A DNA stretch of 64,000 nt from Clostridia bacterium (GCA_017435905.1 JAFSEB010000046.1:1186-65185), one strand, 5' to 3'; shown: positions 1 to 34,396, counted from the stretch's first letter. Program-made: numbers and translations. Notes: generated by a model not told the origin, from the letters alone.

Positions 1-1780
1 CGTTGTCACCGGTGAGCATGACGACCTTGATGCCCATCTTCTGGAGTTCACGCACAGCGCGGGGGCTGTCTTCCTTGATAACGTCAGCAACAGCGATGAT
101 ACCTTCGAGCTTGTCGTCCTTTGCGAAGAACAGCGGGGTCTTGCCCTGCTCGGCGAGCTTCTCGGAAGCGGCCTTGATCTCGGCGGGAACGGGGGTCTTG
201 GTGCTGATGTACTTGTAGTTACCGCCGTTGAGCACGGAGCCGTTCCACTTTGCGGTAAGACCGTTGCCGGGCAGCGCCTGGAAGTCATCCACGGGATCGG
301 CGGTCATGCCGAGCTCGTCAGCCTTCTTCAGGATGGCACGGGCAAGGGGATGTTCGCTCTTGCTTTCAAGTGCAAAGGCCATCTTGAGGAGATCGTTCTC
401 CTTGACGCCCTTGGCGGGGATGATATCGGTGACCTTGGGTTCGCCGCTGGTGATGGTACCGGTCTTATCGAGGGCTACGATATCGACCTTACCGGTCTCT
501 TCGAGGGAGACAGCGGTCTTGAAGAGGATACCGTTCTTGGCGCCCATGCCGTTACCGACCATGATGGCAACAGGGGTAGCAAGACCGAGTGCGCAGGGGC
601 AGCTGATAACGAGAACGGAGATGCCGCGTGCAAGGGCAAAACCGAAGGTCTCGCCGAGGATGAGCCACACGATGGTGGTCACAACGGCAATGGAGATAAC
701 GACAGGAACGAACACGCCGGAAACCTTATCGGCAACCTTTGCGATGGGAGCCTTGGTGGCGGCAGCGTCGCTGACCATCTGGATGATCTGGGAGAGAGTG
801 GTGTCTTCGCCGACGCGGGTAGCCTGGCACTTAATGAAGCCGGACTGGTTGAGCGTAGCGGCGCTGACCTGGTCGCCTTCGGCCTTATCCACAGGGATGG
901 ATTCGCCGGTGAGGGCGGCTTCGTTCACAGCGCTGTGGCCTTCGATGACAACGCCGTCAACGGGGATGTTTTCGCCGGGGCGGACTACGAAGATGTCGCC
1001 CTTGATGACCTGATCGATGCCGACGGTCATCTCTTCGCCGTCACGGATGACGTTGGCGGTCTTGGGAGCGAGCTTCATGAGGCTCTTAAGAGCATCGGTG
1101 GTACGGCCCTTGGAACGGGCTTCGAGCATCTTACCGACGGTGATGAGGGTGAGGATCATCGCGGCGGCTTCGAAATAAAGGTCATGCAGGTAGGCGTGCT
1201 TGTCGGCAAACTCGGTAGCAGCGGTCATGGCGAACACGCAGTAGGTGGAGTACACGAACGCCGCAGAGGAACCGAGGGCGATCAGAGTATCCATGTTGGG
1301 TGCGCCGTGGAGCAGCGTCTTGAAACCGGAAGTGAAGAACTTCTGGTTGATGATCATAACGATGATCGCAAGGAGCATTTCGGTAAGGCCCAGTGCGATG
1401 GGGTTCTTGTCAAAGAAAGCGGGAACCGGGAAGCCCCACATCTTGGAACCCATGGAGAAATACATCAGGACGAGAAGGAAGCCAAGGGAGGTCCAAAGGC
1501 GCTTCTTGAGCTTCGGGGTCTCGGTATCCTTGAGGGCATCCTCGTTGGCGGCGGCGCTCGGAGCACCTGCAGCGGGGCCAGCGCCCTTTTCGGTAGCACC
1601 ATAGCCGGCCGCAGTAACGGCGGCGATGACGTCGGACGGGTTGGCGCTGCCTTCCACGCCCATGGAGTTAGTCAGCAGGCTGACGGAGCAGGACGTGACG
1701 CCGGGAACCTTATTCACGGCTTTTTCGACCCTGGCAACGCAAGCGGCACAGCTCATGCCAGTGACATTGTATTGCTTCAT
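1..1780 (-). CDS. copA: Copper-translocating P-type ATPase, N-terminal ~593 aa. The C-terminus lies beyond the window start
   Basis: Absent from the supplied ORF track because it runs off the edge. Reverse-strand translation from the ATG at 1780-1778 gives MKQYNVTGMSCAACVARVEKAV (GMSCAAC metal-binding domain). Further on come SCPCALGLATP (CPC motif) and DKTGTIT. GGAGG RBS at 1794-1798. Lies directly downstream of csoR. Confidence 0.9.
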   Translation of the reverse strand, partial: MKQYNVTGMSCAACVARVEKAVNKVPGVTSCSVSLLTNSMGVEGSANPSDVIAAVTAAGYGATEKGAGPAAGAPSAAANEDALKDTETPKLKKRLWTSLGFLLVLMYFSMGSKMWGFPVPAFFDKNPIALGLTEMLLAIIVMIINQKFFTSGFKTLLHGAPNMDTLIALGSSAAFVYSTYCVFAMTAATEFADKHAYLHDLYFEAAAMILTLITVGKMLEARSKGRTTDALKSLMKLAPKTANVIRDGEEMTVGIDQVIKGDIFVVRPGENIPVDGVVIEGHSAVNEAALTGESIPVDKAEGDQVSAATLNQSGFIKCQATRVGEDTTLSQIIQMVSDAAATKAPIAKVADKVSGVFVPVVISIAVVTTIVWLILGETFGFALARGISVLVISCPCALGLATPVAIMVGNGMGAKNGILFKTAVSLEETGKVDIVALDKTGTITSGEPKVTDIIPAKGVKENDLLKMAFALESKSEHPLARAILKKADELGMTADPVDDFQALPGNGLTAKWNGSVLNGGNYKYISTKTPVPAEIKAASEKLAEQGKTPLFFAKDDKLEGIIAVADVIKEDSPRAVRELQKMGIKVVMLTGDN

Positions 1781-1825: not shown

Positions 1826-2134
1826 TTATTTCATAAGTTTCTGAAGAGTTGCTGTCAGTTCATCGATGACCTCATCTTTTCCTTCCCTGATGTCGTGCAC
1901 TACACAGGTGTGGATGTGATTGGTCAGCAATTCCCTGTTGAACGCATTGATCGCTGCGGTAACAGCGGCAGACTGCATCAGAATATCGGTGCAGTAAGCA
2001 TCACGTTCAAGCATCCCTTTGATGCCTCGGATCTGTCCTTCAATTCGGTTCAGCCGGTTTACCAGCTTTTTATACTCCGCCTCAGACCGTTCCTTGGTCT
2101 TATGGGAGCAGCAACCCCCTTCACGTTTCGCCAT
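1826..2134 (-). CDS. csoR: CsoR-family copper-sensing transcriptional repressor
   Basis: MAKREGGCCSHKTKERSEAEYKKLVNRLNRIEGQIRGIKGML...YCTDILMQ...HIHTC carries the CsoR C-H-C ligand pattern. Start taken at MAKREGG inside ORF 1826..2167. Confidence 0.85.
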   Translation of the reverse strand: MAKREGGCCSHKTKERSEAEYKKLVNRLNRIEGQIRGIKGMLERDAYCTDILMQSAAVTAAINAFNRELLTNHIHTCVVHDIREGKDEVIDELTATLQKLMK

Positions 2135-2197
2135 AGAAGTACTTCCTTTCAAAAAACATGCATGCAATTAACTGATATCAGAAGTGTACGTCTATAT

Positions 2198-2225
2198 GTT
2201 ATACCCCGTATAGGTATCATGTCAA
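2198..2225 (-). promoter_or_regulatory. csoR-copA promoter with an embedded CsoR operator (box D, 2201-2217)
   Basis: Minus strand reads TTGACA-tg-ATACCTATACGGGGTAT-AACAT. The -35 TTGACA is at 2225-2220 and the -10 TATAAC at 2203-2198 (16-nt spacer). ATACCC-N5-AGGTAT pseudo-palindrome at 2201-2217. Confidence 0.7.
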
Positions 2226-2359
2226 GGGCTGTGGAAGCGAAAAAAGCCATTTTATCCCGTAATTTATATTTACGTTTTCGCGGTCTTAACATGCATATTT
2301 TGCATGGTTTGTTCACGAAGGGCAAAAGTGGTTTTTCCGCTCACAAAAACGTATTCTTG

Positions 2360-3562
2360 TTACTCTGCCGTGCAGCGAAGAGCGCCGCCGCCAAAGTAGT
2401 ACGCATCAATGCCATCCTTGCTGAGTGCGTGGAGCGCAGCTTCATCAAAGGTATCGGCAATGAAGATCTTTGCCGCTTCAATGGCAATTTTTGCACAGGA
2501 TGCATCCTCCGAAAAAGCGATCAGCTCCGGCAGTGCGCATTTGGGAAGCCCGCTGCGGGCATCGATATACGGCGGAAGGCAGGAACCGTCCTCCCTGACG
2601 AAATAATACCCAAGTTCGGCGCTTTCCGCAGGATAATCACGCAGCTGCACAACGCTGATGCGCCCTGTAAGGGGAAGTGTTTCAAGCAGGAACACGCCTT
2701 CTTCGCCCCTGTGCAGGAAGGGCACGGCGGTAACGGCTTCGTCCGCATCACGCAGCTGGCGGACAAATCCGTCCTCGCTGATGAGCGAACCGTTGACATA
2801 ACCCTTTGCTGTCAGTTCATCCGCAATATAATCGATGATAAAGGCGTTGTTCAGCCAGAAAAAATCCAGGAAGCGGTCGAAGTCATTTTCTTCCGCAAAG
2901 CGAAGATATGCATCCGAAACATGAAGCACAATCATGTTTCCGTCAAGAAATTCCAGTGATACGGCACCGGGATCGGCGGCATAGGCTGCCGCTTCGGCGA
3001 AAAATGTTTTCAGCGCTTCATTTCGGTACGGATCGTATTCCGCCGCTTCCGGTTCCTCGGAAAGGAACAGGGAACGGTACAACCCGTATACCGGCGCAAG
3101 ATAGTGGTATCTGACGCCTGCATCCTCCAGCAGCATCAGCGCACCGTAAAGGGCAGGATCGACTTCGATCACTTCGTTGACATGTGCGTTGATGTAGCAG
3201 AGGTTTTTATGATCCTCATACTCCGCTTCCGCATTGAAGATGCGGTATGCGGCAATGCACGATTCGCTGTAAAGCTTTGTCAGGGCTTTCTTTTCCTCGG
3301 TGGCGGAGGTCTCCCCCGCCCCGAGGTCATAGACAAAGCTGAAATCGTCACCGCAGGTCATCTCTCCCCCATCGGATACGGTGATCTCCATCACCCCCGG
3401 TTCCGTTGTCAGCAGGGCGTTAAGCCCATACCCAAAGGAACCGACGGCGACGATGAGCGCAACTACCAGGAGGGCGATCCTGAGTTTGATCCGCCCTTCC
3501 GGTATTTCGATATGGGTGACCCGCTCGATGAGGGGCCTGTCGTTTGCAAGCGGCCTCTTCAT
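2360..3562 (-). CDS. Membrane-anchored hypothetical protein with distant ApbE (FAD:protein FMN transferase)-like sequence pattern
   Basis: N-terminal TM helix (IALLVVALIVAVGSFGYGL). By-eye resemblance to ApbE blocks: YLAPVYGLY, LDFFWLNNAFIIDYIADELTAKGY, GYYFVREDGSCLPPYIDARSGLP. The ATG at 3562 lies 2 nt after the upstream stop. The longer TTG start at 3583 is less likely. Confidence 0.6.
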   Translation of the reverse strand: MKRPLANDRPLIERVTHIEIPEGRIKLRIALLVVALIVAVGSFGYGLNALLTTEPGVMEITVSDGGEMTCGDDFSFVYDLGAGETSATEEKKALTKLYSESCIAAYRIFNAEAEYEDHKNLCYINAHVNEVIEVDPALYGALMLLEDAGVRYHYLAPVYGLYRSLFLSEEPEAAEYDPYRNEALKTFFAEAAAYAADPGAVSLEFLDGNMIVLHVSDAYLRFAEENDFDRFLDFFWLNNAFIIDYIADELTAKGYVNGSLISEDGFVRQLRDADEAVTAVPFLHRGEEGVFLLETLPLTGRISVVQLRDYPAESAELGYYFVREDGSCLPPYIDARSGLPKCALPELIAFSEDASCAKIAIEAAKIFIADTFDEAALHALSKDGIDAYYFGGGALRCTAE

Positions 3563-3563
3563 C

Positions 3564-4880
3564 TTAGAACGCAGCGGATGCAAGCAGCAGCAGGAACACG
3601 ATGATCAGCAGCAGGATGCACCCGAAGGAAGCGATGAAGCCCTTTCTGCATGCCTTGAAATTGCGGATGTAGTTCTTCTTGCGGAAGATGATCGCCGCAA
3701 TGATGCCGATGATGGGCAGCAGGAAGGAAAGGATCACATAGATGGCGCTGCCGGTATCGTGGATGGGTCTGTCAAGGATGACCTCGCTGGTGGCAAGGTT
3801 CTCTTCTTCCACATCCTCATCCGGAGCTTCCGTGTTCACGCCGATGATGGAAAGGGTCTTGAGCGGCACATTGCGCTCACGGATCTTCTTATACTCGGCG
3901 ATCTCCTCTTCGCTGCCGTACACATAGTGGTCATGACCGATGAGCGTGAGCTCCGGCTCTTTTCCGTTGCTGTAATCGTGCTGGGAAGGATCGTAGGTGA
4001 AAAGCGCCTTGTGCTTTTCAAGCTTGGGATCCGGCAGCGGAATGGCGGAAATGAGCGCACGGGTGTAGGGGTGCAGCGGGTAGTTGAACAGCTCTTCCGA
4101 GGTGGCGATCTCCACGATCTTACCTTTGTAGATAACGCCGATGCGGTCGGAAATGTAACGCACGATGGAAAGGTCGTGGGCAATGAACAGGTAGGTGGTG
4201 TTGCGCTCCTCCTTGAACTTGTTCATCAGGTTGAGGATCTGCGCGCGGATGGATACATCAAGTGCGCTGATGGGCTCGTCCGCCACAACAAATTCCGGTT
4301 CCATGACCATGGCCCTTGCAAGGCCGACACGCTGGCGCTGGCCGCCGGAAAACTCATGGGGATAGCGGGTCAGGTGCTCGGGCAGCAGACCGACATCCTC
4401 GATGATCTTTTCCACCTTGCGGACACGGTCGGTGTCGTCTTCATAAAGATGGAAGTTGTAAAGGCCTTCGGAAATGATGTATTCCACGGTGGCACGCTCG
4501 TTAAGGGAGGCGGCAGGATCCTGGAATACCATCTGGATGTTCCTGACCACTTCACGGTCCAGCGAATGAGGGATCTTGCCGGAAATGCGCACGCCCTTAT
4601 ACTGGATCTCGCCCTTGGAGCAGGTGTTGGCACGGATCACCGCACGGCCGATGGTGGTCTTACCGGAGCCGGATTCGCCCACGAGGGAGAACGTTTCGCC
4701 CTTGTAGATATCAAAGGAAGCATCCTTGACCGCACGGACGATGTTATCGCCCTTGCCGAAGTTGATATCCACATTTTTCACGGAAAGAAGGATCTCTTTT
4801 CCGTTCTCGGCGATGGGCCCATGCTCGGGGAAATGGCCGGTTCTGATCTCCGAAACCTTATTGTTTTTCTCTTTTCCCAT
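3564..4880 (-). CDS. Opp/Dpp-family ABC ATPase (OppF-like) with a ~100-aa C-terminal extension ending in a 2-TM hairpin
   Basis: Walker [18 protein letters not shown] signature and [12 protein letters not shown] oligopeptide C-terminal motif, then the tail ...[25 protein letters not shown]...[23 protein letters not shown] at 4880 is preceded by AGGTGA. Confidence 0.85.
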
Positions 4881-4890
4881 AGCAGTCACC

Positions 4891-6639
4891 TTAAATATTG
4901 AATACTTTTCTCAGGGTACCGTGGATATCGCGGATGATCTCAGGCTTTTCGATCTTCGGTGCCCGGGGGTCAAGCAGCCAGGTCTTGGCATAATGCGTAT
5001 CGGATACCTTGAACATGGGCGGTTCTTCCAGCGTATCCACCGTGAGGCAGTAAGGATTGCGGGGGGCAAAGGCATCGCCCTTGATCCTGTTGTACAGGGA
5101 GGGCGGCGTGCCGCCGATGGAGTAAAGCTTCATACCGCGGTCCATCAGCTGCGGCAAGGAGGAAAGCAGCACCCAGGTATAGGGGTGACGGGGATCGTAG
5201 AAGATCTCCTCCGTGGTGCCGACCTCGATGATCTGGCCCGCATACAGCACCGCAACACGGTCTGCCACGTTGGCAACAACGCCAAGGTCGTGGGTGATGA
5301 ACACGATGGTATACTTGAATTCCTTCTGCAGATCCTTGATGAGCTTCAGGATCTGTGCCTGAATGGTCACGTCAAGAGCCGTGGTGGGCTCGTCGCAGAT
5401 GAGGATCTTCGGATGGCAGGAAAGCGCAATGGCGATAACGATACGCTGGCGCATGCCGCCCGAATACTGGAAGGGATAATCGTCAAAACGCATCTCCGCA
5501 TTGGGGATGCCCACCTTCTTCATCAGCACGATGGCACGCTTCTTCGCTTCCACCTCGGAAACGTTCTGGTGCTTCATGATGACGGAGGTGATCTGGTGGC
5601 CGATGGTCAGGATCGGGTTCAGGGACGTCATCGGATCCTGGAAGATGGTGGCGATCTTGCGGCCGCGGATCTCTGCCCAGTTGGCAACGCAGGAGGTCTT
5701 TGCCACATTCAGTACGGAGGAACCGTAGAGCTTGTTGTTCTTGCCCTGATCGTAGCGCACACGGAACATGACGTTTTCAAAGACGCCGTTGCGCTGCTTT
5801 TCATCGTTCAGATCCACGCCGATGGTGAGAGCGGTCTTCATGCACTTCATGAGCTTGCGCATGAGCGGCGCCCACTTTGCGGAGGGATAGCGGTACAGGG
5901 AAAGATACACTTCCTTGGCAATGACAGCGTTGCGCTTCTTGGTCTCTTCGCTGATCTCGCCGGCGCACTCGGTCCTGTACTGTGCCTTGAGGGCTGCCAT
6001 CTTTTCCGCATATGCCTTGTTGTAGGCCGCATCGTTCTTGGTTTTCGCAGTGTGATCTTTGACAAGTGCCTTGCGCTCGGCGTCAAGCGCCTTGATCTTG
6101 CGGTCGCACTCATCGATCTCCGCCTGCGCCTCGCGGATCATGCCTTTTTCCGTGCGGCGGTCATAAGCCTGCTTGCGGTTGAAAGCTTCCGTGCGGCGGT
6201 AAACGAGTTCCTTACGGGTGGTTTCAAATTTGGTCTGCTCTGCCTCGTCAAGGGTCAGGCGCTCCTGCTTTTCCTTTTCAAGGGCACGCATGGCCTGATA
6301 GGTCTTGGCGCCAAGCTCCAGCTTGGAATACTCGTTGAGCTTCTTTTCCGCCTGTGCCATGATCTTCTCCGCAAGGGAGTGCACGGGGGCAACGGTCTCG
6401 GTGAATTCGTCATCGTTGAAGATGATGTCACCCTGATCGATAAAGCCGTTGTTATCCAGCATGCCGGCAAAGGTCTTGGTAAGAACGGATTTGCCGCAGC
6501 CGGATTCGCCCACGATGGCGATGGATTCGTTTTCGTAAATATCCAGCGATACGCCGCGGATGGCGGTCAGGATCCTGCCGCGCACACGGAAGCGGACGTA
6601 AAGATCGCGGATGGAGAGCAATACTTTCTTTTCTTCCAT
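4891..6639 (-). CDS. Opp/Dpp-family ABC ATPase (OppD-like) carrying a ~240-aa charged insertion
   Basis: Walker [40 protein letters not shown]. Residues ~79-320 are a K/E/A/R-rich segment absent from the paralog at 48743-49804. AGGGAGGG RBS. Confidence 0.9.
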
Positions 6640-6653
6640 TTAAAAGCCCTCCC

Positions 6654-7643
6654 TTACAGCATGTGGGTACGGGGGTCGGCAGCGTCGCCAAGGCTCTGGC
6701 CCACGAGGAACAGAACGATGGAGATGAAGGCCGACAGCATAACGGGGCACCAGAATTCCCAGCCCCAGCCGGGGGTGACCATGGCAGGCTGTGCGTTGTA
6801 AACGAGCTTACCGAGGGTGGTATCGGAAATACCGAGGCCGATGTAGCTGAGGAACGCTTCGGAGCCGATGTAGCCCGGCAGGGAGTTCGCCATCATGGTC
6901 ACGATGAAGGAGATCATGAAGGGCAGGATGTTCTTCGTTGCAATGCGCAGCGTTGAGGTACCGAGGCACTTGGAAGCAAGGTTGTATTCACGGTCACGGA
7001 TAATGATGACCTGCGTACGGATGGAGTAGGCGATACCGATCCAGCCGGTAACACACATGGCGAACACGAGCGTTGCAAAGTTCGGGGAGAATACAAGAAC
7101 GAGAACGGAGGTAACGAGGGTGCCGGGAACGTTGGCAATGACGTTGCGGATCTCGTTCATGATGATATCCACTTTCTTTGAGAAGCCCCACAGCGCACCG
7201 ATCATGATACCGATGGAGAAGTTGATGATGGTGCAGAGGATCGCAAGAGAGATGGAGATACGGGAGCCGTACCACAGCGCATCGAAGGTGGACTGGCCGG
7301 ATTCGCCGGTGCCGAAGATCCATTTAATATGGAAGCCATACTTTTCGATCGCCGCTGCGGGGGTCAGGTGCTTCGAGAGGGGATCCATGATGTTCTCAAA
7401 CTTGTCATAGCCGGTGAAGGTGGGATAGATGTAGGTGAACACAAGGATCAGCACCATCATGGCAATGACAAGGATGTTGGACTTCTTGGAGAAGAACACG
7501 CGGCCTACGCTGCGCCAGTAGGAATAACGGGGCGCAACGATCTTTTCCACCGCCGCCGCATCCTGCGGCGCCCTTTGGAAGAGCTGTTCATCCGTCAAGC
7601 CGGTATGCGCAAGATCAAAAAGCTTTTCTTTTGTTTCTGTCAT
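6654..7643 (-). CDS. Opp/Dpp-family ABC permease (OppC-like)
   Basis: Typical OppC layout (RYSYWRSVGRVFF N-terminus, multiple TM helices, EAFLSYIGLGI block). ATG at 7643 is preceded by AGGTGA. The GTG at 7652 overlaps the upstream stop. Confidence 0.85.
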   Translation of the reverse strand: MTETKEKLFDLAHTGLTDEQLFQRAPQDAAAVEKIVAPRYSYWRSVGRVFFSKKSNILVIAMMVLILVFTYIYPTFTGYDKFENIMDPLSKHLTPAAAIEKYGFHIKWIFGTGESGQSTFDALWYGSRISISLAILCTIINFSIGIMIGALWGFSKKVDIIMNEIRNVIANVPGTLVTSVLVLVFSPNFATLVFAMCVTGWIGIAYSIRTQVIIIRDREYNLASKCLGTSTLRIATKNILPFMISFIVTMMANSLPGYIGSEAFLSYIGLGISDTTLGKLVYNAQPAMVTPGWGWEFWCPVMLSAFISIVLFLVGQSLGDAADPRTHML

Positions 7644-7648
7644 CTTGA

Positions 7649-9220
7649 TCACCTTGCCTTAGTCGTAAAGGAGATACGCGGGTCCATAATGGCCATCGTG
7701 ATGTCGCCGAGAACGGCGGAAATGATGGACAGTACGCCGTAGAACAGCGCAACGCCGACGATCACCTGGTTGTCATAGGCACCGATCGCTTCCACAAGGA
7801 GGCCGCCGACGCCGGGGATGGTGTAGATACGTTCCATCATGATGGAGCCGGACAGCGCCATGATGATGGTGTTGGGGAGACCGTGGGTGATCGGGATCGC
7901 CGCATTCTTGAAGATGTGCTTTGCGAAGATCTCAAACTCGCTCAGGCCCTCTGCACGGGCGAACTTCACGTAATCGGAGTTCATCTGGTCCACCATGTAG
8001 CGGCGCATCCACTTCATGGTACCGGCAACGGAGCTTGCAAGGCTTGCCACCACCGGCGTGATGTACATCAGCACCGTGGGGTTGTCCAGCGAGAAGATGA
8101 CCGGCAGGCCGATCTTCACCGCCACCGCCTTGAACATGAAGTAGTACGCAAGGGACGGCACGGCGATCATGAAGATCACGTATGCGTTGCCGAGGTTGTC
8201 CACCCAGGTATCCTTCTTCTTCGCCATCAGGATGCCGAGGGGCAGGCCGAGGAGGTAGGTAAAGAAGGATGCAAGGATACTGATGATAAAGGAATAGAAG
8301 ATCTTGGACTTGCTGTCCTTATGGAGGTTGATGTTGGTGTAATCATCCGTATAACGGTCGGCAAGAACAAGGTTCAGCTCACGGGAACCGGGAGCATATA
8401 TTGCGCTGTGCAGGTCATCCGCACTTTCCGCCACAAGACCCGTGGGGTAATAGGTGGTGGTAGGCACGTAGGTACCCTGCCGCTGTGTCATCGTCTGGAA
8501 TACATCCACGCCCTTGTTGACGCTGAAGGATGTACCAAGCGTAAGTTTCACGAAGTTCTGGTGTACATAGGGGAAGTACTGATCGAAATAAAGGAGATAC
8601 TTATGCAGCGTGCCGTTACCGAGAATGGCCGGGGAGAATTTCTCGCCGCCGTAAGCAGGGTCATACCAGGTAAAGGTCAGGCCGCGCTCGCCGATGTCCT
8701 CTTCCACATAGTTGATGTCGTCAAAGGTGAGAAGGCTCGAAAAGAAATCCCATACCCTCTCGTGCACCGGCGTATTGATGTAGGCAAACAGCATAGCTGC
8801 GCCGCCCGTTGCAATGCGCTTGGAGTTTGCCATAACGGCATCAAGGCGTTTGACGGTATAGCCGTTTTCTTCGCAGTAATCCAAATACTGCTGGATGTAA
8901 GGCTTTGCAGCCTCGGGATCCTGTTCTGCAGTCCTGCCGATAGAAGCGATGGTGGACTTGAATTCCTCATCCATTTCGCCCTTTGCAACAAGCTCGTTCA
9001 GGTAATCGTTATAGGAGATAAGGTCAAGATAGCCGTATTTCTCCCAGGTAGTATACATGTAGCTGATCTTCTGGTTGTTAGCCAGCTTTGCATACTGTTC
9101 ATCTTCCGAGAAGATGAGCGTATTATCCATCGCATAGAACAGAAGAACCATGATGATGGAGACCGCGATCACCACGGATACACAGCCGCGGCCAACGCGT
9201 TTAAAAAAATACTTTAACAT
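7649..9220 (-). CDS. Opp/Dpp-family ABC permease (OppB-like) with an enlarged first extracytoplasmic loop (523 aa)
   Basis: MLKYFFKRV N-terminus, then TM1, then a ~270-aa loop before TM2, then the conserved permease core (YVKFARAEGLSEFEIFAKHIFKNA, IDPRI C-terminus). AGGGAGAA RBS. Confidence 0.85.
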   Translation of the reverse strand: MLKYFFKRVGRGCVSVVIAVSIIMVLLFYAMDNTLIFSEDEQYAKLANNQKISYMYTTWEKYGYLDLISYNDYLNELVAKGEMDEEFKSTIASIGRTAEQDPEAAKPYIQQYLDYCEENGYTVKRLDAVMANSKRIATGGAAMLFAYINTPVHERVWDFFSSLLTFDDINYVEEDIGERGLTFTWYDPAYGGEKFSPAILGNGTLHKYLLYFDQYFPYVHQNFVKLTLGTSFSVNKGVDVFQTMTQRQGTYVPTTTYYPTGLVAESADDLHSAIYAPGSRELNLVLADRYTDDYTNINLHKDSKSKIFYSFIISILASFFTYLLGLPLGILMAKKKDTWVDNLGNAYVIFMIAVPSLAYYFMFKAVAVKIGLPVIFSLDNPTVLMYITPVVASLASSVAGTMKWMRRYMVDQMNSDYVKFARAEGLSEFEIFAKHIFKNAAIPITHGLPNTIIMALSGSIMMERIYTIPGVGGLLVEAIGAYDNQVIVGVALFYGVLSIISAVLGDITMAIMDPRISFTTKAR

Positions 9221-9241
9221 ATTTCTTTCTCCCTTTTTTGA

Positions 9242-9269
9242 CAGGGCAGGGGGCGAACCCCCTGCCCTG
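9242..9269. other. GC-rich stem-loop in the oppA1-oppB1 spacer
   Basis: CAGGGCAGGGGG-cgaa-CCCCCTGCCCTG, a 12-bp perfect stem. No U-tract follows it in the sense (minus) orientation. Confidence 0.6.
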
Positions 9270-9317
9270 CAAGTTTGCCTCTAAGGTTTTGTTTGAAGCG
9301 TGCGCTTCAGCCGGTTA

Positions 9318-11528
9318 TTACCAGAGACCCATCTTGGGAGTCAGATAACCGTCGCCGTAGGGCAGGAGCGCTTCGGTGTAGCACTGCGGATCGCCGTGGT
9401 CGGAACCGATGGCGCCGAGGCCGCCCATGTCGGTGTTGTGCTCAGCACCGCAGGTGGTGTTGTTCTGTACATTGAGGAACTCGGTGGCGTTGTTCAGCGG
9501 GATCAGGTCGAAGCGGACGCAGTCGCCAAGAGCAGCTTCGATGCAGGTCTTGAGGACGTAGGCCTGGTTTTGACCGGTCTCATTGTAGCCAACGTGCGGA
9601 TAGTCGATGACGATCGGGTTGTCAGGGCTGACTTCAAAGCCAATGGTCTTCAGGTCTTCGATGGCAAGAGCCAGTTCCTGAGCGGCGAGTTCCGGATTGT
9701 ACCAGCCATCCCAACCGTCGGTGGAGAGGTTGGCTTCGTCCCAAACAACTACGGGGAACTCATCGGCGGTCAGCTGAGCCTGCACGATCTCACCGTACCA
9801 GGTGCCGGCGGGGAAGGTAGTGGCTTCACCGTTGATGTCGATGGTCACTTCTTCTGCCAGGGAAGCATAGGTGCCGGGAGTCATGGTGTTGCGGATGCTG
9901 ACAGACTTCAGATCCTCACCAACGCTCTGGGAGATGTAGGAAGCACGGTCGATGGCGAAGTTCAGAGCAAGACGGAAGTGCCTGTTCTGGAACGCAGCGC
10001 AGCTGAGCTCCTTCTCGGCATCGGTCTTCATGGAAGCGCCGGCGCCGTCAGCCATGTTGGCGTAGGTCTGGCGATGGAGGTTGAACCAGAAGAGGAAGGT
10101 CGCACGGCCGGTCTCGGAAGTGGTGGCATACTTTTCAAAGTCGCCGTTGGCCTTTGCGGTCTCGATCTGGGCAGCGCGGAGATACATGTAGGTGGTCAGA
10201 CCGTTCATGAAGTTGTCATAAGCGCGGGAAACGTCGCTGCCATCATCATAAACGAGGCTGAAGTTCTTGAGGGTAACGTTGGCAGCATTCCAGTAGCTCT
10301 CGTTGAGCACGTAGTTGACGGAGTTCTTCTCGGTCATGTTGGTGCAGAGGAACTGGCCGCTGTAGGGGATATGGTTCTGGTCGATACCGTAGGTGTAGCT
10401 GGAGGAAGCAGCAGCTTCGGAATACTCAGCAACGCCGAACGCACCGCCCTGGGAGAGGAAGTAGCTGCGGCAGAGGGGCAGGAAGTCGATGGACTGCCAC
10501 ATGGAATCGAAATAGGTGCAGGGGGTGTTGAGGGTGTACTGGAGGGTGAGGTCATCAAGCGCCTTGACGCCGACGGTGGAGAAGTCGGTGGTCTCACCGG
10601 TGAGGTAAGCAGTCATGCCCGCAACGTAGCTGCCGAGGGTGTAGGCATCCTGAAGGTCAGCCTGATGCTGTGCAGCGGCTACCCAGTCGTCAGCAACGAT
10701 GTCCGCAACCTTACGGCCCTGAGAGTCGACCCAGACCATACCGGGGCGGATCTTGATGGTGTAGGTGAGGCCATCGGGGGAGATCTCATAGCTCTCCGCA
10801 AGGTGGGGAGTGAGAACGCCTTCGGGATTGTAAACGTAGAGAAAGTCGTAAGAGGGGCCGATCAGCTTGCTGTCGTTGGAGGTGGCAGCAGCGAAGATGT
10901 CCCAGGTGGTGGCGTTGTCAACGAAGGTGTCAACAACGGTGTCGCTGAAGGTGTAGCCCTTGCCGGCAAGGTATTCCTTGACCTTGGTGGCATAGGTGCC
11001 GGTGCCGAGGCACTCGAGGTAGATCTTCTTGGTCTCTGCGTAATCCTCAGCGGTGATGATCTCGTTGGTGAGGATGTAGTCGCAGTAGTTGGTCATGCCG
11101 CCGCGCCAGGGAGCATAACCGCCGCTGCGGTAGACCTGACGGGTCATGATGTAGCCGGCAACGGGGCCGTACATGGGAGCACCGGTGGAAGCCTGAAGAG
11201 CCTTTGCTTCCGCAACGGCGAGGAGGGCATGGCGCTCGGATACGGTCGCAGCTTCCATGGCGGCGTTGTAGTACTCATAGAACTCGCCAAGGTTGGCCAT
11301 GTAGATCTCTTCGTCAGTCTCGTAGATGGCGAAGGGTTCCTCTACCTCTTCAGGCTCTTCGGAAGCTTCGGGTTCGGTGGAGGCTTCGGGAGCGGTGGAG
11401 GTTTCGGGAGCGGTGGAGGTTTCGGGGGCAGTGGAAGCTTCGGGAGCGGTGGTGTTATCGCCGCCGCAAGCGACCAGCAGGGGGAGCATCAGAGCCAGAA
11501 TAAGGGTGATTGCTGCCAGTTTCTTCAT
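9318..11528 (-). CDS. Family-5 (Opp/Dpp-type) extracellular solute-binding lipoprotein, 736 aa
   Basis: Signal peptide plus lipobox LLVAC(21)GG, a PEAST-rich linker, then a large SBP body. First gene of the five-gene transporter operon. AAAGGAG RBS. Confidence 0.85.
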   Translation of the reverse strand: MKKLAAITLILALMLPLLVACGGDNTTAPEASTAPETSTAPETSTAPEASTEPEASEEPEEVEEPFAIYETDEEIYMANLGEFYEYYNAAMEAATVSERHALLAVAEAKALQASTGAPMYGPVAGYIMTRQVYRSGGYAPWRGGMTNYCDYILTNEIITAEDYAETKKIYLECLGTGTYATKVKEYLAGKGYTFSDTVVDTFVDNATTWDIFAAATSNDSKLIGPSYDFLYVYNPEGVLTPHLAESYEISPDGLTYTIKIRPGMVWVDSQGRKVADIVADDWVAAAQHQADLQDAYTLGSYVAGMTAYLTGETTDFSTVGVKALDDLTLQYTLNTPCTYFDSMWQSIDFLPLCRSYFLSQGGAFGVAEYSEAAASSSYTYGIDQNHIPYSGQFLCTNMTEKNSVNYVLNESYWNAANVTLKNFSLVYDDGSDVSRAYDNFMNGLTTYMYLRAAQIETAKANGDFEKYATTSETGRATFLFWFNLHRQTYANMADGAGASMKTDAEKELSCAAFQNRHFRLALNFAIDRASYISQSVGEDLKSVSIRNTMTPGTYASLAEEVTIDINGEATTFPAGTWYGEIVQAQLTADEFPVVVWDEANLSTDGWDGWYNPELAAQELALAIEDLKTIGFEVSPDNPIVIDYPHVGYNETGQNQAYVLKTCIEAALGDCVRFDLIPLNNATEFLNVQNNTTCGAEHNTDMGGLGAIGSDHGDPQCYTEALLPYGDGYLTPKMGLW
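11335..11465 (-). repeat. Tandem ~18-bp coding repeats for the (T/S)APE(A/T)S linker of the SBP
   Basis: Plus strand shows GCTTCGGGAGCGGTGGAGGTTTCGGGAGCGGTGGAGGTTTCGGGGGCAGTGGAAGCTTCGGGAGCGGTGG. The protein reads TAPEASTAPETSTAPETSTAPEASTEPEASEEPEE. Confidence 0.8.
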
Positions 11529-11691
11529 TGACGTTCTCCTTTCGCAATTTGTTTCTTATCATTTCCGCGTGGTTTGGGATTGCGCGGAAACGGCTGCAAT
11601 AATTCGGCAAAGCCGAAATCAAGATCGAATTTGGAAATCGGGCAGAATTGTGAATAAATTCTTAAATTCGAAAAATGCGACGCCCTTCGTA

Positions 11692-11720
11692 TTGACAAAT
11701 ACCCGACGGGGGTATATATT
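11692..11720 (+). promoter_or_regulatory. Consensus-like promoter on the plus strand with an embedded CsoR-type operator (box A, 11699-11715)
   Basis: TTGACA (11692-11697)-a-ATACCCGACGGGGGTAT-ATATT. The -10 is TATATT at 11715-11720 with a 17-nt spacer. Perfect ATACCC-N5-GGGTAT palindrome. Confidence 0.5.
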
Positions 11721-11905
11721 GTGTTTGTCGGGATGGTTGCCGGACAAACAGGCAACCGTTCCATCCTGCCTCACGTTTCAAAAAAACGAAGAAAGCCGCC
11801 TTGCGTTTGCATAACAACATTGGCGAAATCTTTTGCTTCAACAGGATTCACTTCAAATAAACATTTTTATTTATATGCCCATGCGGAACCGCACGGGTAA
11901 AAGAG

Positions 11906-11922
11906 ATACCCAAATAGGGTAT
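11906..11922. promoter_or_regulatory. CsoR-type operator (box B), perfect palindrome
   Basis: ATACCCAAATAGGGTAT. The extended palindrome AGATACCC-aaata-GGGTATCT spans 11904-11924. It lies just downstream of the minus-strand promoter at 11927-11955. Confidence 0.55.
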
Positions 11923-11926
11923 CTAA

Positions 11927-11955
11927 ATGTTATACCCCTTCCGAGTATTTGTCAA
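11927..11955 (-). promoter_or_regulatory. Minus-strand promoter with an embedded CsoR-type operator (box C, 11932-11948). Candidate promoter of the Opp1 operon
   Basis: Minus strand reads TTGACA-a-ATACTCGGAAGGGGTAT-AACAT, the same layout as the csoR promoter, and both share the 12-mer GGGGTATAACAT. It lies 427 nt upstream of the oppA1 ATG. Confidence 0.5.
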
Positions 11956-12242
11956 TAGGCTTTTCACGAAGTTTTTGCTTTTTTGTCGTTTTTTACAATC
12001 AAACGCTGAAAATATTTGCATTGTTCCTGATACACATTACATTTCTTCATGCATGCACCTGTTTTTTCACTTGCATGCATGCTTTTTTTCTGTTGTCCGC
12101 ATGCATTCGCTTTCGCTTCACTTCACTGAAGCCATCCTGAAAAAAGTGCCGAAATCAGCCACCTTTCTTTCGTTCCTGTTTCAGCTTTTGCAGTGTGCGG
12201 GATGCGATGAGCGAAGGGCTGTTTTTTGCCGAACATAAAGAA

Positions 12243-12282
12243 AGCAAATGACCTTTTCTTTTATTTACAAAGGTCATTTGCT
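12243..12282. terminator. Bidirectional rho-independent terminator
   Basis: AGCAAATGACCTTT-12 nt loop-AAAGGTCATTTGCT, a 14-bp stem with an A-run on one side and a T-run on the other. It lies downstream of the minus-strand lipoprotein gene. Confidence 0.75.
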
Positions 12283-12420
12283 TCTTTATTATGGTTTTGC
12301 TAAATTCAGCTTGCTGAAAAGCCGTGCTTTTCGAGGCTGTTTCTTTCCATATATGGGGGGTATATCCGGAATATCCTTGTATTCAGGGCGTTTTCAGACC
12401 CCGTTTTCATATATTGCGCA

Positions 12421-13137
12421 TTATGCCCAGCGTCCGCCCCTGCGTCCGCCCCGGCAGCCGCCGCTGTAGCTTCCGGAATTTTCGCTGTAATCCCAGCTGC
12501 CGCCAACGGCATTTCCGTTTTCATCGGCACCCCAGCAGCCGTACCAGCCGTTGCCGTCCCAGCAGTAGTATTCACCGCTGAAGCAGCCATTCCTGTTGCT
12601 GTTCCAGCAGCCTTCCCAGTTTTCACCGTTCCAGCAGTAGTACGCATCGCCATCCCAGCAGTAATAGTCGCCGTTCCAGCAATAGTACTCCACATCGCTG
12701 CTGCCTTCAAAGGCAGGGATGCCGCCCTCATAGGTAAGGGTGCTGACATAGCTGACAGTCTCTTCCTGCGCTGCGGTGATCTGCGGTGCAGCTGCTGCCG
12801 CAGGCGCTTCGTAGCTTTCTTCCACAGGTGCGGCAGGCACACCGGGATCGGCAGCAGCATCCTGTACGGATGCCGCAAACTGTTCCTGCTGCGCTTCGGC
12901 GGAGGTTTCCCCATCTCCATCGGCCGCATACAGGTTATAATATGCCGCCAGCGCATCAAGATCCTCGACGCCCGTTGCGGCTGCAATTTCCATCACATCA
13001 TTTACATTGACTTTGCTCAGCAATTCCTCACTCACCCCGGGCAGGAGCGCACCCGTTTCGGTGCAGGCAGCCATCATGGGGACCGCCGCCAGGAACAGTG
13101 TGAGTGCCACGATCCGTTTCATCCAATCCCGTTTCAT
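12421..13137 (-). CDS. Cys/Trp/Tyr-rich repeat lipoprotein, hypothetical (no family recognised)
   Basis: MKRDWMKRIVALTLFLAAVPMMAAC lipobox, an acidic Ala/Pro linker, then a C-terminal region with four YYCW(N/D)G repeats plus GCW and GCF variants, ending in a GGCRGGRRGGRWA tail. AAAGGAG RBS before the ATG at 13137. Confidence 0.75.
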   Translation of the reverse strand: MKRDWMKRIVALTLFLAAVPMMAACTETGALLPGVSEELLSKVNVNDVMEIAAATGVEDLDALAAYYNLYAADGDGETSAEAQQEQFAASVQDAAADPGVPAAPVEESYEAPAAAAAPQITAAQEETVSYVSTLTYEGGIPAFEGSSDVEYYCWNGDYYCWDGDAYYCWNGENWEGCWNSNRNGCFSGEYYCWDGNGWYGCWGADENGNAVGGSWDYSENSGSYSGGCRGGRRGGRWA

Positions 13138-13192
13138 TTTTTCTCTCTTTTCTCCTTTCGTTTTTGATCTGCCTTGTTTTGGCATGCCTGAT

Positions 13193-13220
13193 TGTATACC
13201 CCACACAGGTATTTTGTCAA
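13193..13220 (-). promoter_or_regulatory. Promoter of the Cys/Trp-rich lipoprotein gene with an embedded CsoR-type operator (box E, 13196-13212)
   Basis: Minus strand reads TTGACA-aa-ATACCTGTGTGGGGTAT-ACAAT, nearly superimposable on the csoR promoter TTGACA-tg-ATACCTATACGGGGTAT-AACAT. Confidence 0.6.
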
Positions 13221-13444: not shown

Positions 13445-13473
13445 TTGACAATATATTGATGTTGTGTTATGAT
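13445..13473 (+). promoter_or_regulatory. Promoter of the ilv-leu leader
   Basis: TTGACA (13445-13450), 17-nt spacer, TATGAT (13468-13473). Confidence 0.6.
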
Positions 13474-13479
13474 TCTCTG

Positions 13480-13770
13480 CAATTGGTCATACTATAAAAA
13501 TGCGCAGACGGAATTATGCCCGCATCAGAAGGTCAAGAGAGCCGGCGGCTGCTGTGAGCCGGTCCGGAAGATGCTGCGGCAGCCTCCTTCCCGAGCAGAG
13601 CGCCCCAACAAAACAGTAAGGCGTTCCGGTCGCCCCGTTACAGGCTATAAGCTTGACTGAGCTTTGAATTTGAGTGATCGCCCGTTTGCATTTGGCATGC
13701 AGCGGCGATAATCAGGGTGGTACCGCGATTGATTCGTCCCTGAAGCCGATAACGGCTTCAGGGATTTTTT
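13480..13770 (+). promoter_or_regulatory. T-box riboswitch leader of the ilv-leu operon (candidate Leu CUC specifier)
   Basis: AGAGAG bulge and GCUGUGA distal loop in stem I. F-box-like CCGTTA. Canonical T-box AATCAGGGTGGTACCGCG at 13710-13727 overlaps the terminator stem. CTC at 13584-13586 sits in the predicted specifier loop. Confidence 0.85.
13738..13770 (+). terminator. T-box leader terminator
   Basis: CCCTGAAGCCG-ataa-CGGCTTCAGGG followed by ATTTTTT. Confidence 0.85.
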
Positions 13771-13843: not shown

Positions 13844-15550
13844 ATGCAACTGACTGGCGCAGAGATCCTGATGGAATGCTTGATGGAGCAGGGCGTCGAT
13901 ACCATTTTCGGTTACCCCGGCGGCACCATCCTCAACGTTTACGACGCTCTTTGCAGCTACAAAGGCAGGGTACGCCACATTCTCACATCCCATGAGCAGG
14001 GCGCTGCCCACGCAGCGGACGGTTATGCCCGTTCCACCGGCAAGGTGGGCGTATGCTTCGCCACTTCCGGCCCCGGCTGCACCAACCTGACAACCGGCAT
14101 CGCCACCGCTTATATGGATTCTTCCCCCGTCGTCTTCATCACCTGCAACGTCAGCGAAAACCTGGTGGGCAAGGATTCCTTCCAGGAAGTGGACATCACC
14201 GGCATCACCATGCCCATCACCAAGTGTAATTATATGGTAAAAAGTGCCGATGACATCGCAGACGTGGTGCGGCAGGCCTTTGCCATCGCCCGTGGCGGAC
14301 GCCCCGGCCCCGTCCTCATCGACATCGTGAAAAACGCCACCGCACAGAAGGCGGAATACATCCCCCTTACCCGTGAACAGCACGGCAGCGAAGGCCGCCT
14401 CGGTGCCCTCATCAAGCGTGCTTCCCACGACCTCAAGGCACCCGAACCCAACATGGCGGATGTGAAAAAGCTGGCGGAGATGATCCGCAAAAGCGAAAAG
14501 CCCCTCCTCATCTGCGGCGGCGGTGTGGTGCGAGGCAGGGCGGATAAAGAGCTTCTTGCCTTTGCGGAACGGATCGATTCCCCCGTTTGCGTCACCGTGA
14601 TGGGCGCCGGCGGCTTCAGAGGCAGGAATCCCCTCACCACCGGCATGATCGGCATGCACGGTTCGCAGGCTTCCAACATGGCCTGCGACAGCTGCGATCT
14701 TCTCATCGCCATCGGCTGCCGCTTCTCCGACCGTGTGGCACTTGACCCCGCAAGCTTCGCCAAGCAGGCCCAGATCGTGCAGATCGACATCGACCGTGCG
14801 GAGATCAACAAGAACGTGCAGACAGATCACCACATCATCGGCGATGCGAAGCAGGTGCTGCAGCTGCTCCTTGACGAGCTTGACCAGATGGATCATACCC
14901 CCTGGAAAGATTATGTATTCTCCTTCAAGACGGAGACCGAATACGAAGAAGAAAGCGATACCCTGACACCCAAGCAGATCAGTGATTCCATCGCAAGGCT
15001 GATGCCCGAGGATACCATGGTCGCTACCGATGTGGGCCAGCACCAGATGTGGGTCATCCAGCACTTCCACTACGATTATCCCGGCCAGCTGATGACTTCC
15101 GGTGGTTTTGGCACCATGGGCTTCGGCCTTGGCGCAGCCATCGGCGCAAAGGTGGGCAACCCGGAAAAGACGGTCATCCACATCACCGGCGACGGCAGCT
15201 TCCGCATGAACTGCAACGAGCTTGCCACCGAGGAGCATTACGATATCCCCGTCATCACCTTCATCTTCAACAACAGGACCCTCGGCATGGTGCGCCAGTG
15301 GCAGACGCTCATTTATGACAAGCGCTACAGCGAGACCACCCTTGAACACGGTCCCGATTTCGTGAAGCTTGCCGAGGCATACGGCCTCAGGGGCAGGCAT
15401 GTATGCACCGTGGAACAGCTGGAAGATGCCATCCGTGAGGCGCTTGCGTGGAACCACGGCTTCGTCATCGACTGCGCCATCGAGCAGGACGAGATGGTCC
15501 GCCCCATGGTGAGCGGCGGCAGCCGTATCACCCAGTTCATCATCGACTAA
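13844..15550 (+). CDS. ilvB: Acetolactate synthase large subunit
   Basis: MQLTGAEILMECLMEQGVDTIFGYPGG..., ThDP-enzyme motifs (GDGSFRMN), 568 aa. Confidence 0.95.
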   Translation: MQLTGAEILMECLMEQGVDTIFGYPGGTILNVYDALCSYKGRVRHILTSHEQGAAHAADGYARSTGKVGVCFATSGPGCTNLTTGIATAYMDSSPVVFITCNVSENLVGKDSFQEVDITGITMPITKCNYMVKSADDIADVVRQAFAIARGGRPGPVLIDIVKNATAQKAEYIPLTREQHGSEGRLGALIKRASHDLKAPEPNMADVKKLAEMIRKSEKPLLICGGGVVRGRADKELLAFAERIDSPVCVTVMGAGGFRGRNPLTTGMIGMHGSQASNMACDSCDLLIAIGCRFSDRVALDPASFAKQAQIVQIDIDRAEINKNVQTDHHIIGDAKQVLQLLLDELDQMDHTPWKDYVFSFKTETEYEEESDTLTPKQISDSIARLMPEDTMVATDVGQHQMWVIQHFHYDYPGQLMTSGGFGTMGFGLGAAIGAKVGNPEKTVIHITGDGSFRMNCNELATEEHYDIPVITFIFNNRTLGMVRQWQTLIYDKRYSETTLEHGPDFVKLAEAYGLRGRHVCTVEQLEDAIREALAWNHGFVIDCAIEQDEMVRPMVSGGSRITQFIID

Positions 15551-34159: not shown

Positions 34160-34396
34160 AGTTAATGCGATGAACGGGACACACGGCAAACAACCGCCCC
34201 CAAGCGAGCTGCGGCACGGTGAGAGCGCAGCGGGAAACGGGTTCTGCACGCATCCCCCGTGAGTGCGCAGCCGAACTTTTATCAGTAAGCTGCGCCGTGA
34301 GCGCACGTTACAGCGCAAATGGAGCGGGCGGCGTATGCCGTCAATCCGGGTGGTACCGCGCAGCGTCCTGCGTCCCGTTTTGGGACGCAGTTTTTT
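34160..34396 (+). promoter_or_regulatory. T-box riboswitch leader of ileS (candidate Ile AUC specifier)
   Basis: GGUGAGA distal loop, F-box-like CGTTAC, T-box AATCCGGGTGGTACCGCG at 34343-34360. Terminator CTGCGTCCC-gtttt-GGGACGCAG plus TTTTTT at 34368-34396. ATC at 34252-34254 in the predicted specifier loop. Confidence 0.85.

Follow-up and report, generated by a model that had tools for sequence, protein, structure and literature searches.

Sequence evidence for a predicted CsoR copper regulon that would include a peptide importer in rumen-type Clostridia

Does a copper repressor of the CsoR family in an anaerobic gut bacterium control more than its own gene and that of a copper pump? The question is raised by a 64,000-nucleotide stretch of DNA from Clostridia bacterium (GCA_017435905.1 JAFSEB010000046.1:1186-65185; hereafter the window, with positions counted from its first letter), in which a preliminary description had placed five CsoR-type operators within 11 kb and had proposed a copper regulon reaching to an oligopeptide transporter (opp), there called Opp1, and to a Cys/Trp-rich lipoprotein. 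Firmicutes CsoR regulons are generally thought to be minimal, comprising csoR, copA and a chaperone. According to the mechanism that we propose below, the stretch that begins before position 1 and runs to about 13.2 kb is probably (roughly 75%) a copper-response island under one CsoR, in which opp and the lipoprotein gene are predicted to be placed under copper control alongside the copper pump.

A scan with the motif ATACCC-N5-GGGTAT (ATACCCNNNNNGGGTAT), allowing up to one mismatch, returned exactly five matches in the window, all within 2201-13212 and at the same five positions that had been described (starts: D, 2201; A, 11699; B, 11906; C, 11932; E, 13196). There were zero matches in the remaining 51 kb, in agreement with the earlier remark that no further copies were seen, and A and B are perfect while D, C and E carry one mismatch each, again as stated before. 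The chance expectation given earlier (about 0.004 perfect and about 0.14 one-mismatch matches) is correct for equal base frequencies; in dinucleotide shuffles, 0.08 matches were expected, the maximum was 1, and five were reached in 0 of 100. Allowing two mismatches added two matches elsewhere (29462 and 60587), against 1.15 expected by chance, and the shorter core TACCC-N5-GGGTA recovered the identical five sites. All five operators are intergenic, and four lie in exact register with a TTGACA hexamer:

2196-2225, minus strand: P_D, TTGACA-18-TAACAT, the predicted csoR-copA promoter, enclosing operator D (2201-2217)
11692-11720, plus strand: P_A, TTGACA-17-TATATT (11/12 matches), from the motif and promoter scan, enclosing perfect operator A (11699-11715)
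11906-11922, no strand assigned: operator B, perfect, downstream partner of C, from the motif scan; tandem pairs also in L001, L002 and L003 (related loci, below)
11927-11955, minus strand: P_C, TTGACA-17-TAACAT, the predicted oppABCDF-X promoter, enclosing operator C (11932-11948)
13191-13220, minus strand: P_E, TTGACA-18-TACAAT (11/12 consensus matches), the predicted lipoprotein promoter, enclosing operator E (13196-13212)

The TTGACA hexamers stand 1-2 nucleotides before D, A, C and E, as the preliminary description had it, with -10-like hexamers at 17-18 nucleotides; these four operators fill the -35/-10 spacer, and B lies near the P_C transcription start. Because B has no promoter of its own and starts 26 bp downstream of the start of C, we treat C and B as a tandem operator pair. 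The label of D as the csoR promoter site is upheld, D lying inside the P_D spacer on the minus strand. The wider statement that four sites share the layout of the csoR promoter, made without naming strands, holds for D, C and E, which are in minus-strand promoters, but not for A, whose promoter is on the plus strand and does not face opp.

In form, the five sites are type-2 CsoR operators, that is, pseudo-palindromes with G/C tracts, TACCC and GGGTA arms and a 5-nucleotide spacer, which overlap core promoters as just described and are conserved at orthologous opp, copA and csoR promoters in other species. In the published streptomycete CsoR consensus, ATATACCCCTNAGGGGTATAT, the arms are conserved around a 5-nucleotide spacer, and the tetramer:DNA ratio is 2:1 (PMC3902906); the Streptomyces lividans csoR operator and site A of the window have the flanks GACAAATACCC...GGGTATATAT in common (PMC3902906). 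Staphylococcus aureus CsoR shifts promoter fragments containing ATACCtataGGGGGTAC and ATACCctggGTGGGTAT in electrophoretic mobility shift assays (PMC5947656). Set beside these S. lividans and S. aureus sites, the earlier assignment to the CsoR operator class stands, and we infer that the five boxes are real sites of this class, at which CsoR is predicted to bind. An isolated half-site, GGGGGTATAT, without a partner arm, lies at 12352-12368 in the 3' untranslated stretch of the lipoprotein gene.

The genes behind P_D and P_C are the following:

1-1780, minus strand: copA, copper P-type ATPase with Pfam HMA, E1-E2_ATPase and Hydrolase (HAD) domains; the N-terminal 593 codons are in the window
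1826-2134, minus strand: csoR, 102-amino-acid CsoR/RcnR-family repressor (PF02583, Trns_repr_metal)
2360-3562, minus strand: gene X, 400 amino acids, membrane-anchored, ApbE/Ftp-type fold (AlphaFold2 and Foldseek), last gene of the opp operon
3564-4880, minus strand: oppF-like ATPase with a hydrophobic C-terminal tail (ABC_tran and oligo_HPY; 438 amino acids in same-species contigs)
4891-6639, minus strand: oppD-like ATPase with an insertion of about 240 amino acids in the nucleotide-binding domain (ABC_tran split in two stretches, and oligo_HPY)
6654-7652, minus strand: oppC-like permease (BPD_transp_1)
7649-9220, minus strand: oppB-like permease with a large extra-membrane N-terminal part (BPD_transp_1 at residues 325-517 only)
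9318-11528, minus strand: oppA-like substrate-binding lipoprotein, 736 amino acids (SBP_bac_5; lipobox LVAC in the translation)

Related loci came from an OppA search (three loci), from exact-match retrieval of gene X homologues and from scanning metagenomes with an alignment of X, and were divided into two clades. In clade I (X at least 43% identical, OppA at least 51%; 29 partly redundant loci, 482 kb), the opp operon always adjoins csoR and/or copA, and the motif occurs 70 times (14.5 per 100 kb). In clade II (X at most 40% identical; 58 loci, 828 kb), no csoR or copA is nearby, and the motif occurs once. The matches in those clade I lineages that were read in detail are intergenic, at opp, csoR and copA promoters. 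Tandem operator pairs occupy the same place as in the window, the opp promoter, in L001, L002 and L003, where TTGACA, box and -10 stand directly upstream of oppA and a second box follows at 33-34 bp. Other arrangements are found in L014 (from a metagenome-assembled genome (MAG) labelled Coprococcus sp.), in which copA-copZ is followed by a terminator, a single boxed promoter and oppA, and in L022, in which a doubly boxed promoter precedes csoR-copZ-oppABCDF-X and a doubly boxed copA promoter comes next. The gene order of csoR, copA and opp thus varies between lineages while the link to CsoR-type boxes persists, and the CsoR-box link of opp is conserved across several gut and rumen Clostridia lineages.

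Some box-like palindromes directly after stop codons resemble terminator hairpins (L003 9545-9567, CCCATACCCTCTTTGGGTATGGG, after csoR; L001 20277-20310, GTGTGGGGGTATGTCCCCCACAC, after oppF), and motif matches at gene ends therefore need not be operators. The copper island of L003 also encodes a 669-amino-acid protein (4824-6833) with, by eye, HMA, multi-pass membrane and cupredoxin-like parts, ending CCCRGGY; after it comes a two-component system (6931-9110), preceded by a two-mismatch box, ATACGGGCGGGGGGTAT.

Which regulator would read these boxes? The product of 1826-2134 matches PF02583 over the full profile (104 bits, E 4e-30), and its closest solved relative is Geobacillus CsoR (4M1P), followed by InrS, S. 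lividans CsoR and M. tuberculosis CsoR. The CsoR fingerprint is x-C-H-C; CstR has two Cys and no His. The copper-ligand triad is present in the window protein, in which AYC and HIHTC align to the ligand positions (Cys, His-x3-Cys) of 4M1P, 4ADZ and 2HH7, and this Cys-His-Cys triad is kept in all four CsoR orthologues examined. Furthermore, copA starts 46 nucleotides after csoR, operator D lies in csoR's own promoter spacer, and in same-species contigs (exact-protein match; ruminant-gut metagenomes, MAG GCA_017398525.1) a 915-amino-acid copA is followed by two copZ (HMA) genes. The domain match, the triad and the copA neighbour confirm the earlier assignment of this gene as csoR: by its sequence, its product is a CsoR-family repressor with the copper triad, and it would be expected to respond to Cu(I). 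No second PF02583-family member was found in the 64-kb window or in the related loci inspected.

Before the helical bundle, the CsoR N-terminus (window 2092-2134; also the orthologues of L002, L003, L014 and L020) carries an extra Cys cluster. Within the clade these clusters read CCSH, CHC, CCC, CNCH and CCHCH, and the cluster may be an additional metal site. The words CATGCATG/ATGCATGCA are present at 2157-2166 (csoR 5' untranslated region), at 2290-2306 (downstream of gene X) and at 12048-12108, occurring three times in a 290-nucleotide stretch upstream of P_C; the window holds 7 copies of CATGCATG in total, 3 of them in the csoR 5' untranslated region, gene X downstream or P_C upstream spots, and the words may be the site of another regulator.

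What would be controlled through P_C is an Opp/Ami importer set in one operon, made up of an SBP_bac_5 binder, two BPD_transp_1 permeases and two oligo_HPY-tailed ATPases. The nearest solved structures to OppA are pneumococcal AmiA, AliC, AliB and AliD (E 1e-57 to 1e-45 over about 500 residues), the best match being AmiA 8A42 (E 1.3e-57), and OppB, OppC, OppD and OppF have their best NCBIfam scores against Mycoplasma-type Opp models (OppD, 710 bits). The transporter therefore seems, from these similarities, to be a genuine oligopeptide importer of Ami/Ali and Mycoplasma-Opp type, with peptides as its predicted substrate. S. aureus Opp1 is the Cnt nickel/cobalt metallophore importer. OppA of the window scores 18 bits against the CntA model (cut-off 800) and 25.6 bits against the NikA model (cut-off 393); because both scores are far below the cut-offs and the binder resembles AmiA, AliB, AliC and AliD, the label Opp1 had to be dropped.

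The OppD insertion of about 240 amino acids is rich in charged residues, OppB has about 300 extra N-terminal residues, and both proteins fit the Mycoplasma-type models better than the classical ones. The C-terminus of OppF (3564-3760) consists of a pair of hydrophobic, helix-like segments, each some 20 residues long, which is uncommon among nucleotide-binding subunits of ABC transporters; a hydrophobic tail is also present at the end of the L001 orthologue.

The product of gene X has an N-terminal membrane helix and no Pfam or NCBIfam match. Its AlphaFold2 model (mean predicted local distance difference test score 89) matched 32 ApbE, Ftp or FmnB chains in Foldseek at E <=1e-3, with matches confined to these flavin-transferase structures; the best had E 2.8e-12 and template modelling scores of 0.58/0.69. 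The Pfam ApbE profile was matched by 0 of 28 family members at E <=0.001 (weakly in 3 of 28, best E 0.016), and we therefore term gene X ApbE-fold rather than ApbE. By eye, a KGY...S-x-DG stretch is kept, but the ApbE T/S-S-G-x-Y motif reads L-R-D-Y. In each related locus where gene X is full-length, it follows OppF, and it is the operon's last gene wherever upstream sequence is present.

The third unit, behind P_E, consists of one gene and its terminator:

12421-13137, minus strand: lipoprotein, 238 amino acids, with an acidic linker and a C-terminal Cys/Trp/Tyr repeat domain (from the translation)
12241-12284, minus strand: terminator hairpin ending the lipoprotein transcription unit (read from sequence)

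The repeat domain contains YYCW[ND]G four times and GCW twice. The lipoprotein has no Pfam or NCBIfam match, and no homologues beyond its own cluster of 94-96% identity were found in a word-indexed search of 5.8 billion proteins or a full HMMER search of 1.84 billion. The near-consensus promoter-operator E lies about 50 nucleotides upstream of its start codon. Because the lipoprotein is confined to one species, its membership in the regulon depends on that species' promoter. The boxed opp promoter of L002 is followed first by a gene for a secreted protein of 163 amino acids that has 11 Cys and a high content of Cys, Tyr, Gly and Asn; no homology was detected between this protein and the window lipoprotein, although their compositions are alike, and a composition screen of the related loci for Cys/aromatic-rich secreted proteins recovered it alone. 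The earlier inclusion of the lipoprotein in the regulon is accordingly favored by a textbook promoter-operator of its own, P_E, and qualified by support that comes from one species plus a compositional analogue in L002.

A 50-amino-acid Cys-containing frame in L001 is doubtful. Rfam hairpin-type matches on the 12241-12284 terminator were all below the families' gathering scores. Diverging from the lipoprotein promoter is a transcription unit that starts from a promoter at 13445, with a T-box leader (13496-13744, plus strand, at the Rfam gathering score) preceding an acetolactate synthase gene (13844-15550); a second T-box leader, also at the gathering score, lies at 34161-34380 on the plus strand.

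Site A requires a reading of its own. P_A fires away from oppA, antisense to the opp leader and convergent with P_C. The earlier view of A as a promoter-type site for opp had to be abandoned, as the promoter lies on the plus strand and faces the opposite way inside the opp leader. No minus-strand promoter was found at or downstream of A by eye or by the promoter scan, which makes P_C the apparent start of opp transcription, with A inside a leader of about 400 nucleotides; between P_C and oppA, neither a further promoter nor a terminator was flagged on the minus strand by the scan. Two strains that have diverged by about 1.5% overall, and by about 3% in the leader, retain every half-site of A, B and C, and the sole change within site A is in its unspecified spacer. 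From its position, we read A as an extra operator that would act as a roadblock in the opp leader, and it is probably a copper-inducible antisense promoter as well.

Alternatively, A (and possibly also the orphan box of the human-gut lineage described below) might be a non-functional relic of a promoter-operator module that was duplicated or inverted as the island was rearranged. This would fit with the resemblance of A to the L003 opp promoter, inverted relative to opp, with the differing order of csoR, copA and opp between lineages, with the absence of a conserved reading frame after P_A, and with an insertion sequence element between box and oppA in L041 (a human-gut contig with a 404-amino-acid transposase-like gene at 611-1825, on the opposite strand, between the upstream CsoR-type box and oppA). 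However, A is a perfect operator within an 11/12 promoter, both of which decay would be expected to erode; both of its half-sites have stayed intact despite the divergence of the leader; and a repressor bound inside the leader would hinder transcription whatever the origin of A. We consider a relic unlikely.

Several other features of the leader were considered:

11878-11897, minus strand: opp-leader hairpin (predicted fold), just downstream of operator B

In strains L005 and L006, one base pair of this hairpin has changed from G:C to A:U by compensatory substitution. The sole plausible plus-strand reading frame downstream of P_A, of 55 amino acids, was rejected as a gene, as it has no ribosome-binding site and is broken by a 2-nucleotide deletion and a 1-nucleotide insertion in two strains. 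A 103-amino-acid frame at 11927-12238 was rejected as AT-rich DNA of non-coding composition, and a candidate CodY box in the opp leader was dropped at 7/15 matches by eye. No known RNA family was found in the opp leader or around the sites in Rfam at gathering or E-value thresholds.

The copper regulon first proposed thus retains its central element, since operator class, ligand triad and comparative loci all support the link between CsoR and opp; its revisions concern the orientation of A, the role of B and the name Opp1. We propose the following mechanism. Without copper, CsoR would occupy the ATACCC-N5-GGGTAT operators that fill the spacers of consensus sigma-70-type promoters, with two tetramers per site, as in published homologues. 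Three minus-strand units would be blocked in this way: csoR-copA(-copZ) from P_D, oppABCDF-X from P_C and the lipoprotein gene from P_E. At the opp promoter, the tandem pair would be bound with C between -35 and -10 and B around the transcription start, and operator A in the leader would serve as a bound roadblock and as part of a promoter firing antisense into the leader. Binding of Cu(I) at the Cys-His-Cys site would then free CsoR, and all units would switch on together.

A second reading of the same boxes is that A, B, C and E are bound by another CsoR-family paralogue, for example a CstR-like protein, in which case sulfur or thiol stress would be the signal for opp and the lipoprotein. 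In S. mitis, the cst operator bound by the persulfide sensor CstR, ATATACCCTTATGGGGTATAT, has the identical ATACCC-N5-GGGTAT core (PMC8643695), so that operator sequence alone cannot separate CsoR from CstR and gives the repressor family rather than the signal; it is because of the Cys-His-Cys triad and the copA/copZ linkage that we assign the signal to copper. A role in sulfur metabolism would likewise suit both the Cys-rich protein and the peptide importer, and the search for paralogues covered 64 kb of the genome. Nevertheless, opp is tied to csoR and/or copA in every boxed lineage and the boxes are lost away from copA; csoR, copZ and opp appear to be under one boxed promoter in L022; and every regulator found, in the window and the loci inspected, is of the Cys-His-Cys type and has no second family member beside it. 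Control by a paralogue seems to us quite improbable.

It is also conceivable that A and C, as an inverted pair with 24-nucleotide arms and the common sequence TTGACAAATAC, flank an invertible 216-bp switch that renders opp phase-variable, since inverted-repeat arms here flank a short segment upstream of a surface-protein operon; but the similarity of the arms is explained by the common -35 and operator, one orientation is present in four independent metagenome assemblies of the species, and after inversion both promoters would still point inward, so that nothing would be switched, which makes this idea very improbable indeed. Chance or a compositional effect, for which the small size of the window alone could speak, can practically be dismissed given the shuffles, the empty 51 kb, the single match in the 828 kb of control loci, and the intergenic placement of 5/5 sites with four in exact TTGACA register.

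Control of the whole island by one CsoR remains our preferred reading, and besides the overlap with CstR operators, several points weigh against it. The case for regulation is drawn wholly from sequence. The window comes from an uncultured rumen-type MAG species, and the motif scan covered 64 kb of its genome. That a toxic metal should induce an importer is counter-intuitive, and the convergent P_A could depress opp expression instead of increasing it. The orphan lipoprotein leaves operator E, which rests on one species, beyond the evidence from conservation. Among the related loci, the opp promoter of L020 falls outside the DNA covered, and the box that precedes oppA in L025-L044, the human-gut lineage, stands just after a terminator, about 210 bp upstream of an unboxed promoter; since that box is behind a terminator and an unboxed promoter is nearer, direct control of opp in this lineage is doubtful.

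Why copper should induce peptide import is speculative. Macomber and Imlay are said to have found in 2009 that dehydratases of branched-chain amino-acid synthesis lose their Fe-S clusters to copper, and a study titled 'Role of glutathione in buffering excess intracellular copper in Streptococcus pyogenes' reportedly concerns, as its title implies, copper buffering by a thiol peptide. Our best guess is that, as copper poisons Fe-S dehydratases of amino-acid synthesis and consumes thiols, imported peptides would supply amino acids or cysteine thiol buffers; the lipoprotein would be a surface Cu(I) sink, in a role analogous to that of S. aureus CopL. Extended to the gut and rumen Clostridia clade as a whole, the proposal is that copper stress turns on not only copper export but also CsoR-gated peptide import, with a dedicated extracytoplasmic ApbE-fold partner, together with lineage-specific Cys/aromatic-rich surface Cu(I) traps, a possibility that we put forward tentatively and with some doubt.

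The conserved link suggests that anaerobic gut bacteria answer copper with metabolic compensation and extracellular sequestration besides efflux. Copper is a common livestock feed additive and a host antimicrobial, which gives the copper tolerance of rumen and gut Clostridia practical weight. The island would also provide a first regulatory context for three unannotated families: the ApbE-fold Opp partner, the YYCW[ND]G-repeat lipoprotein and the Cys/Tyr-rich secreted protein. If true, copper-induced peptide import would extend the bacterial copper response by a new physiological arm, and the ApbE-fold Opp accessory family would gain its first function.

How does this island compare with known systems? 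Neither the operators nor a CsoR-family regulon spread over several loci is without precedent; for a peptide importer with an ApbE-fold partner and Cys/aromatic-rich surface proteins as members of a CsoR regulon, the literature searched yielded no description. In the gut-Firmicutes CsoR meta-regulon, csoR and copA account for 96% of promoters and the rest belong to HMA and DUF2318 proteins, and tandem sites are spaced 26, 36-38 and 51/56 bp (PMC4938975). The window has the same operator class, a predicted autoregulated csoR, tandem operators and a boxed copA promoter, and its C-B pair, like the copA pairs of its relatives, is spaced 24-26 bp, 26 bp being one published class (PMC4938975). In contrast to that meta-regulon, in which none is listed, the window adds a peptide ABC importer, an ApbE-fold protein and a Cys/Trp-rich lipoprotein, and its convergent operator-promoter A has no described counterpart there.

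Like the pneumococcal Ami/Ali and Mycoplasma-type Opp systems, the window transporter has five components, a binder that aligns with AmiA/Ali and a large OppD insertion as in the Mycoplasma models. Unlike them, its operon ends in an ApbE-fold gene, its OppF has a hydrophobic tail and its promoter carries CsoR operators; we know of no copper link described for Ami or Opp. With S. aureus Opp1/CntABCDF, it shares the ABC superfamily (SBP_bac_5 with Opp-type permeases and ATPases); unlike that staphylopine-metal importer, it has no opine synthesis genes near opp.

A surface lipoprotein under CsoR has a precedent in S. aureus copXL (copB-copL), a CsoR-repressed unit with a surface lipoprotein proposed as a copper sink (PMC5947656). 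CopL has tandem DUF1541 domains with proposed Met and His ligands, whereas the window lipoprotein is without DUF1541 and has YYCW[ND]G repeats. A parallel in overall design is the M. tuberculosis RicR regulon (ricR, lpqS, mymT, socAB, mmcO and Rv2963), whose members encode, besides small lineage-specific products, a permease, a lipoprotein and a Cys-rich copper-binding metallothionein (PMC3944814). The two differ in phylum and have non-homologous targets, the window CsoR scores 67 bits against the RicR model (cut-off 175), and the targets in the window are all in one 13-kb island. What they have in common is a CsoR-family copper repressor that acts, or in the window is predicted to act, at several separate loci through one palindromic promoter motif, with targets that in the case of RicR are mostly lineage-restricted.

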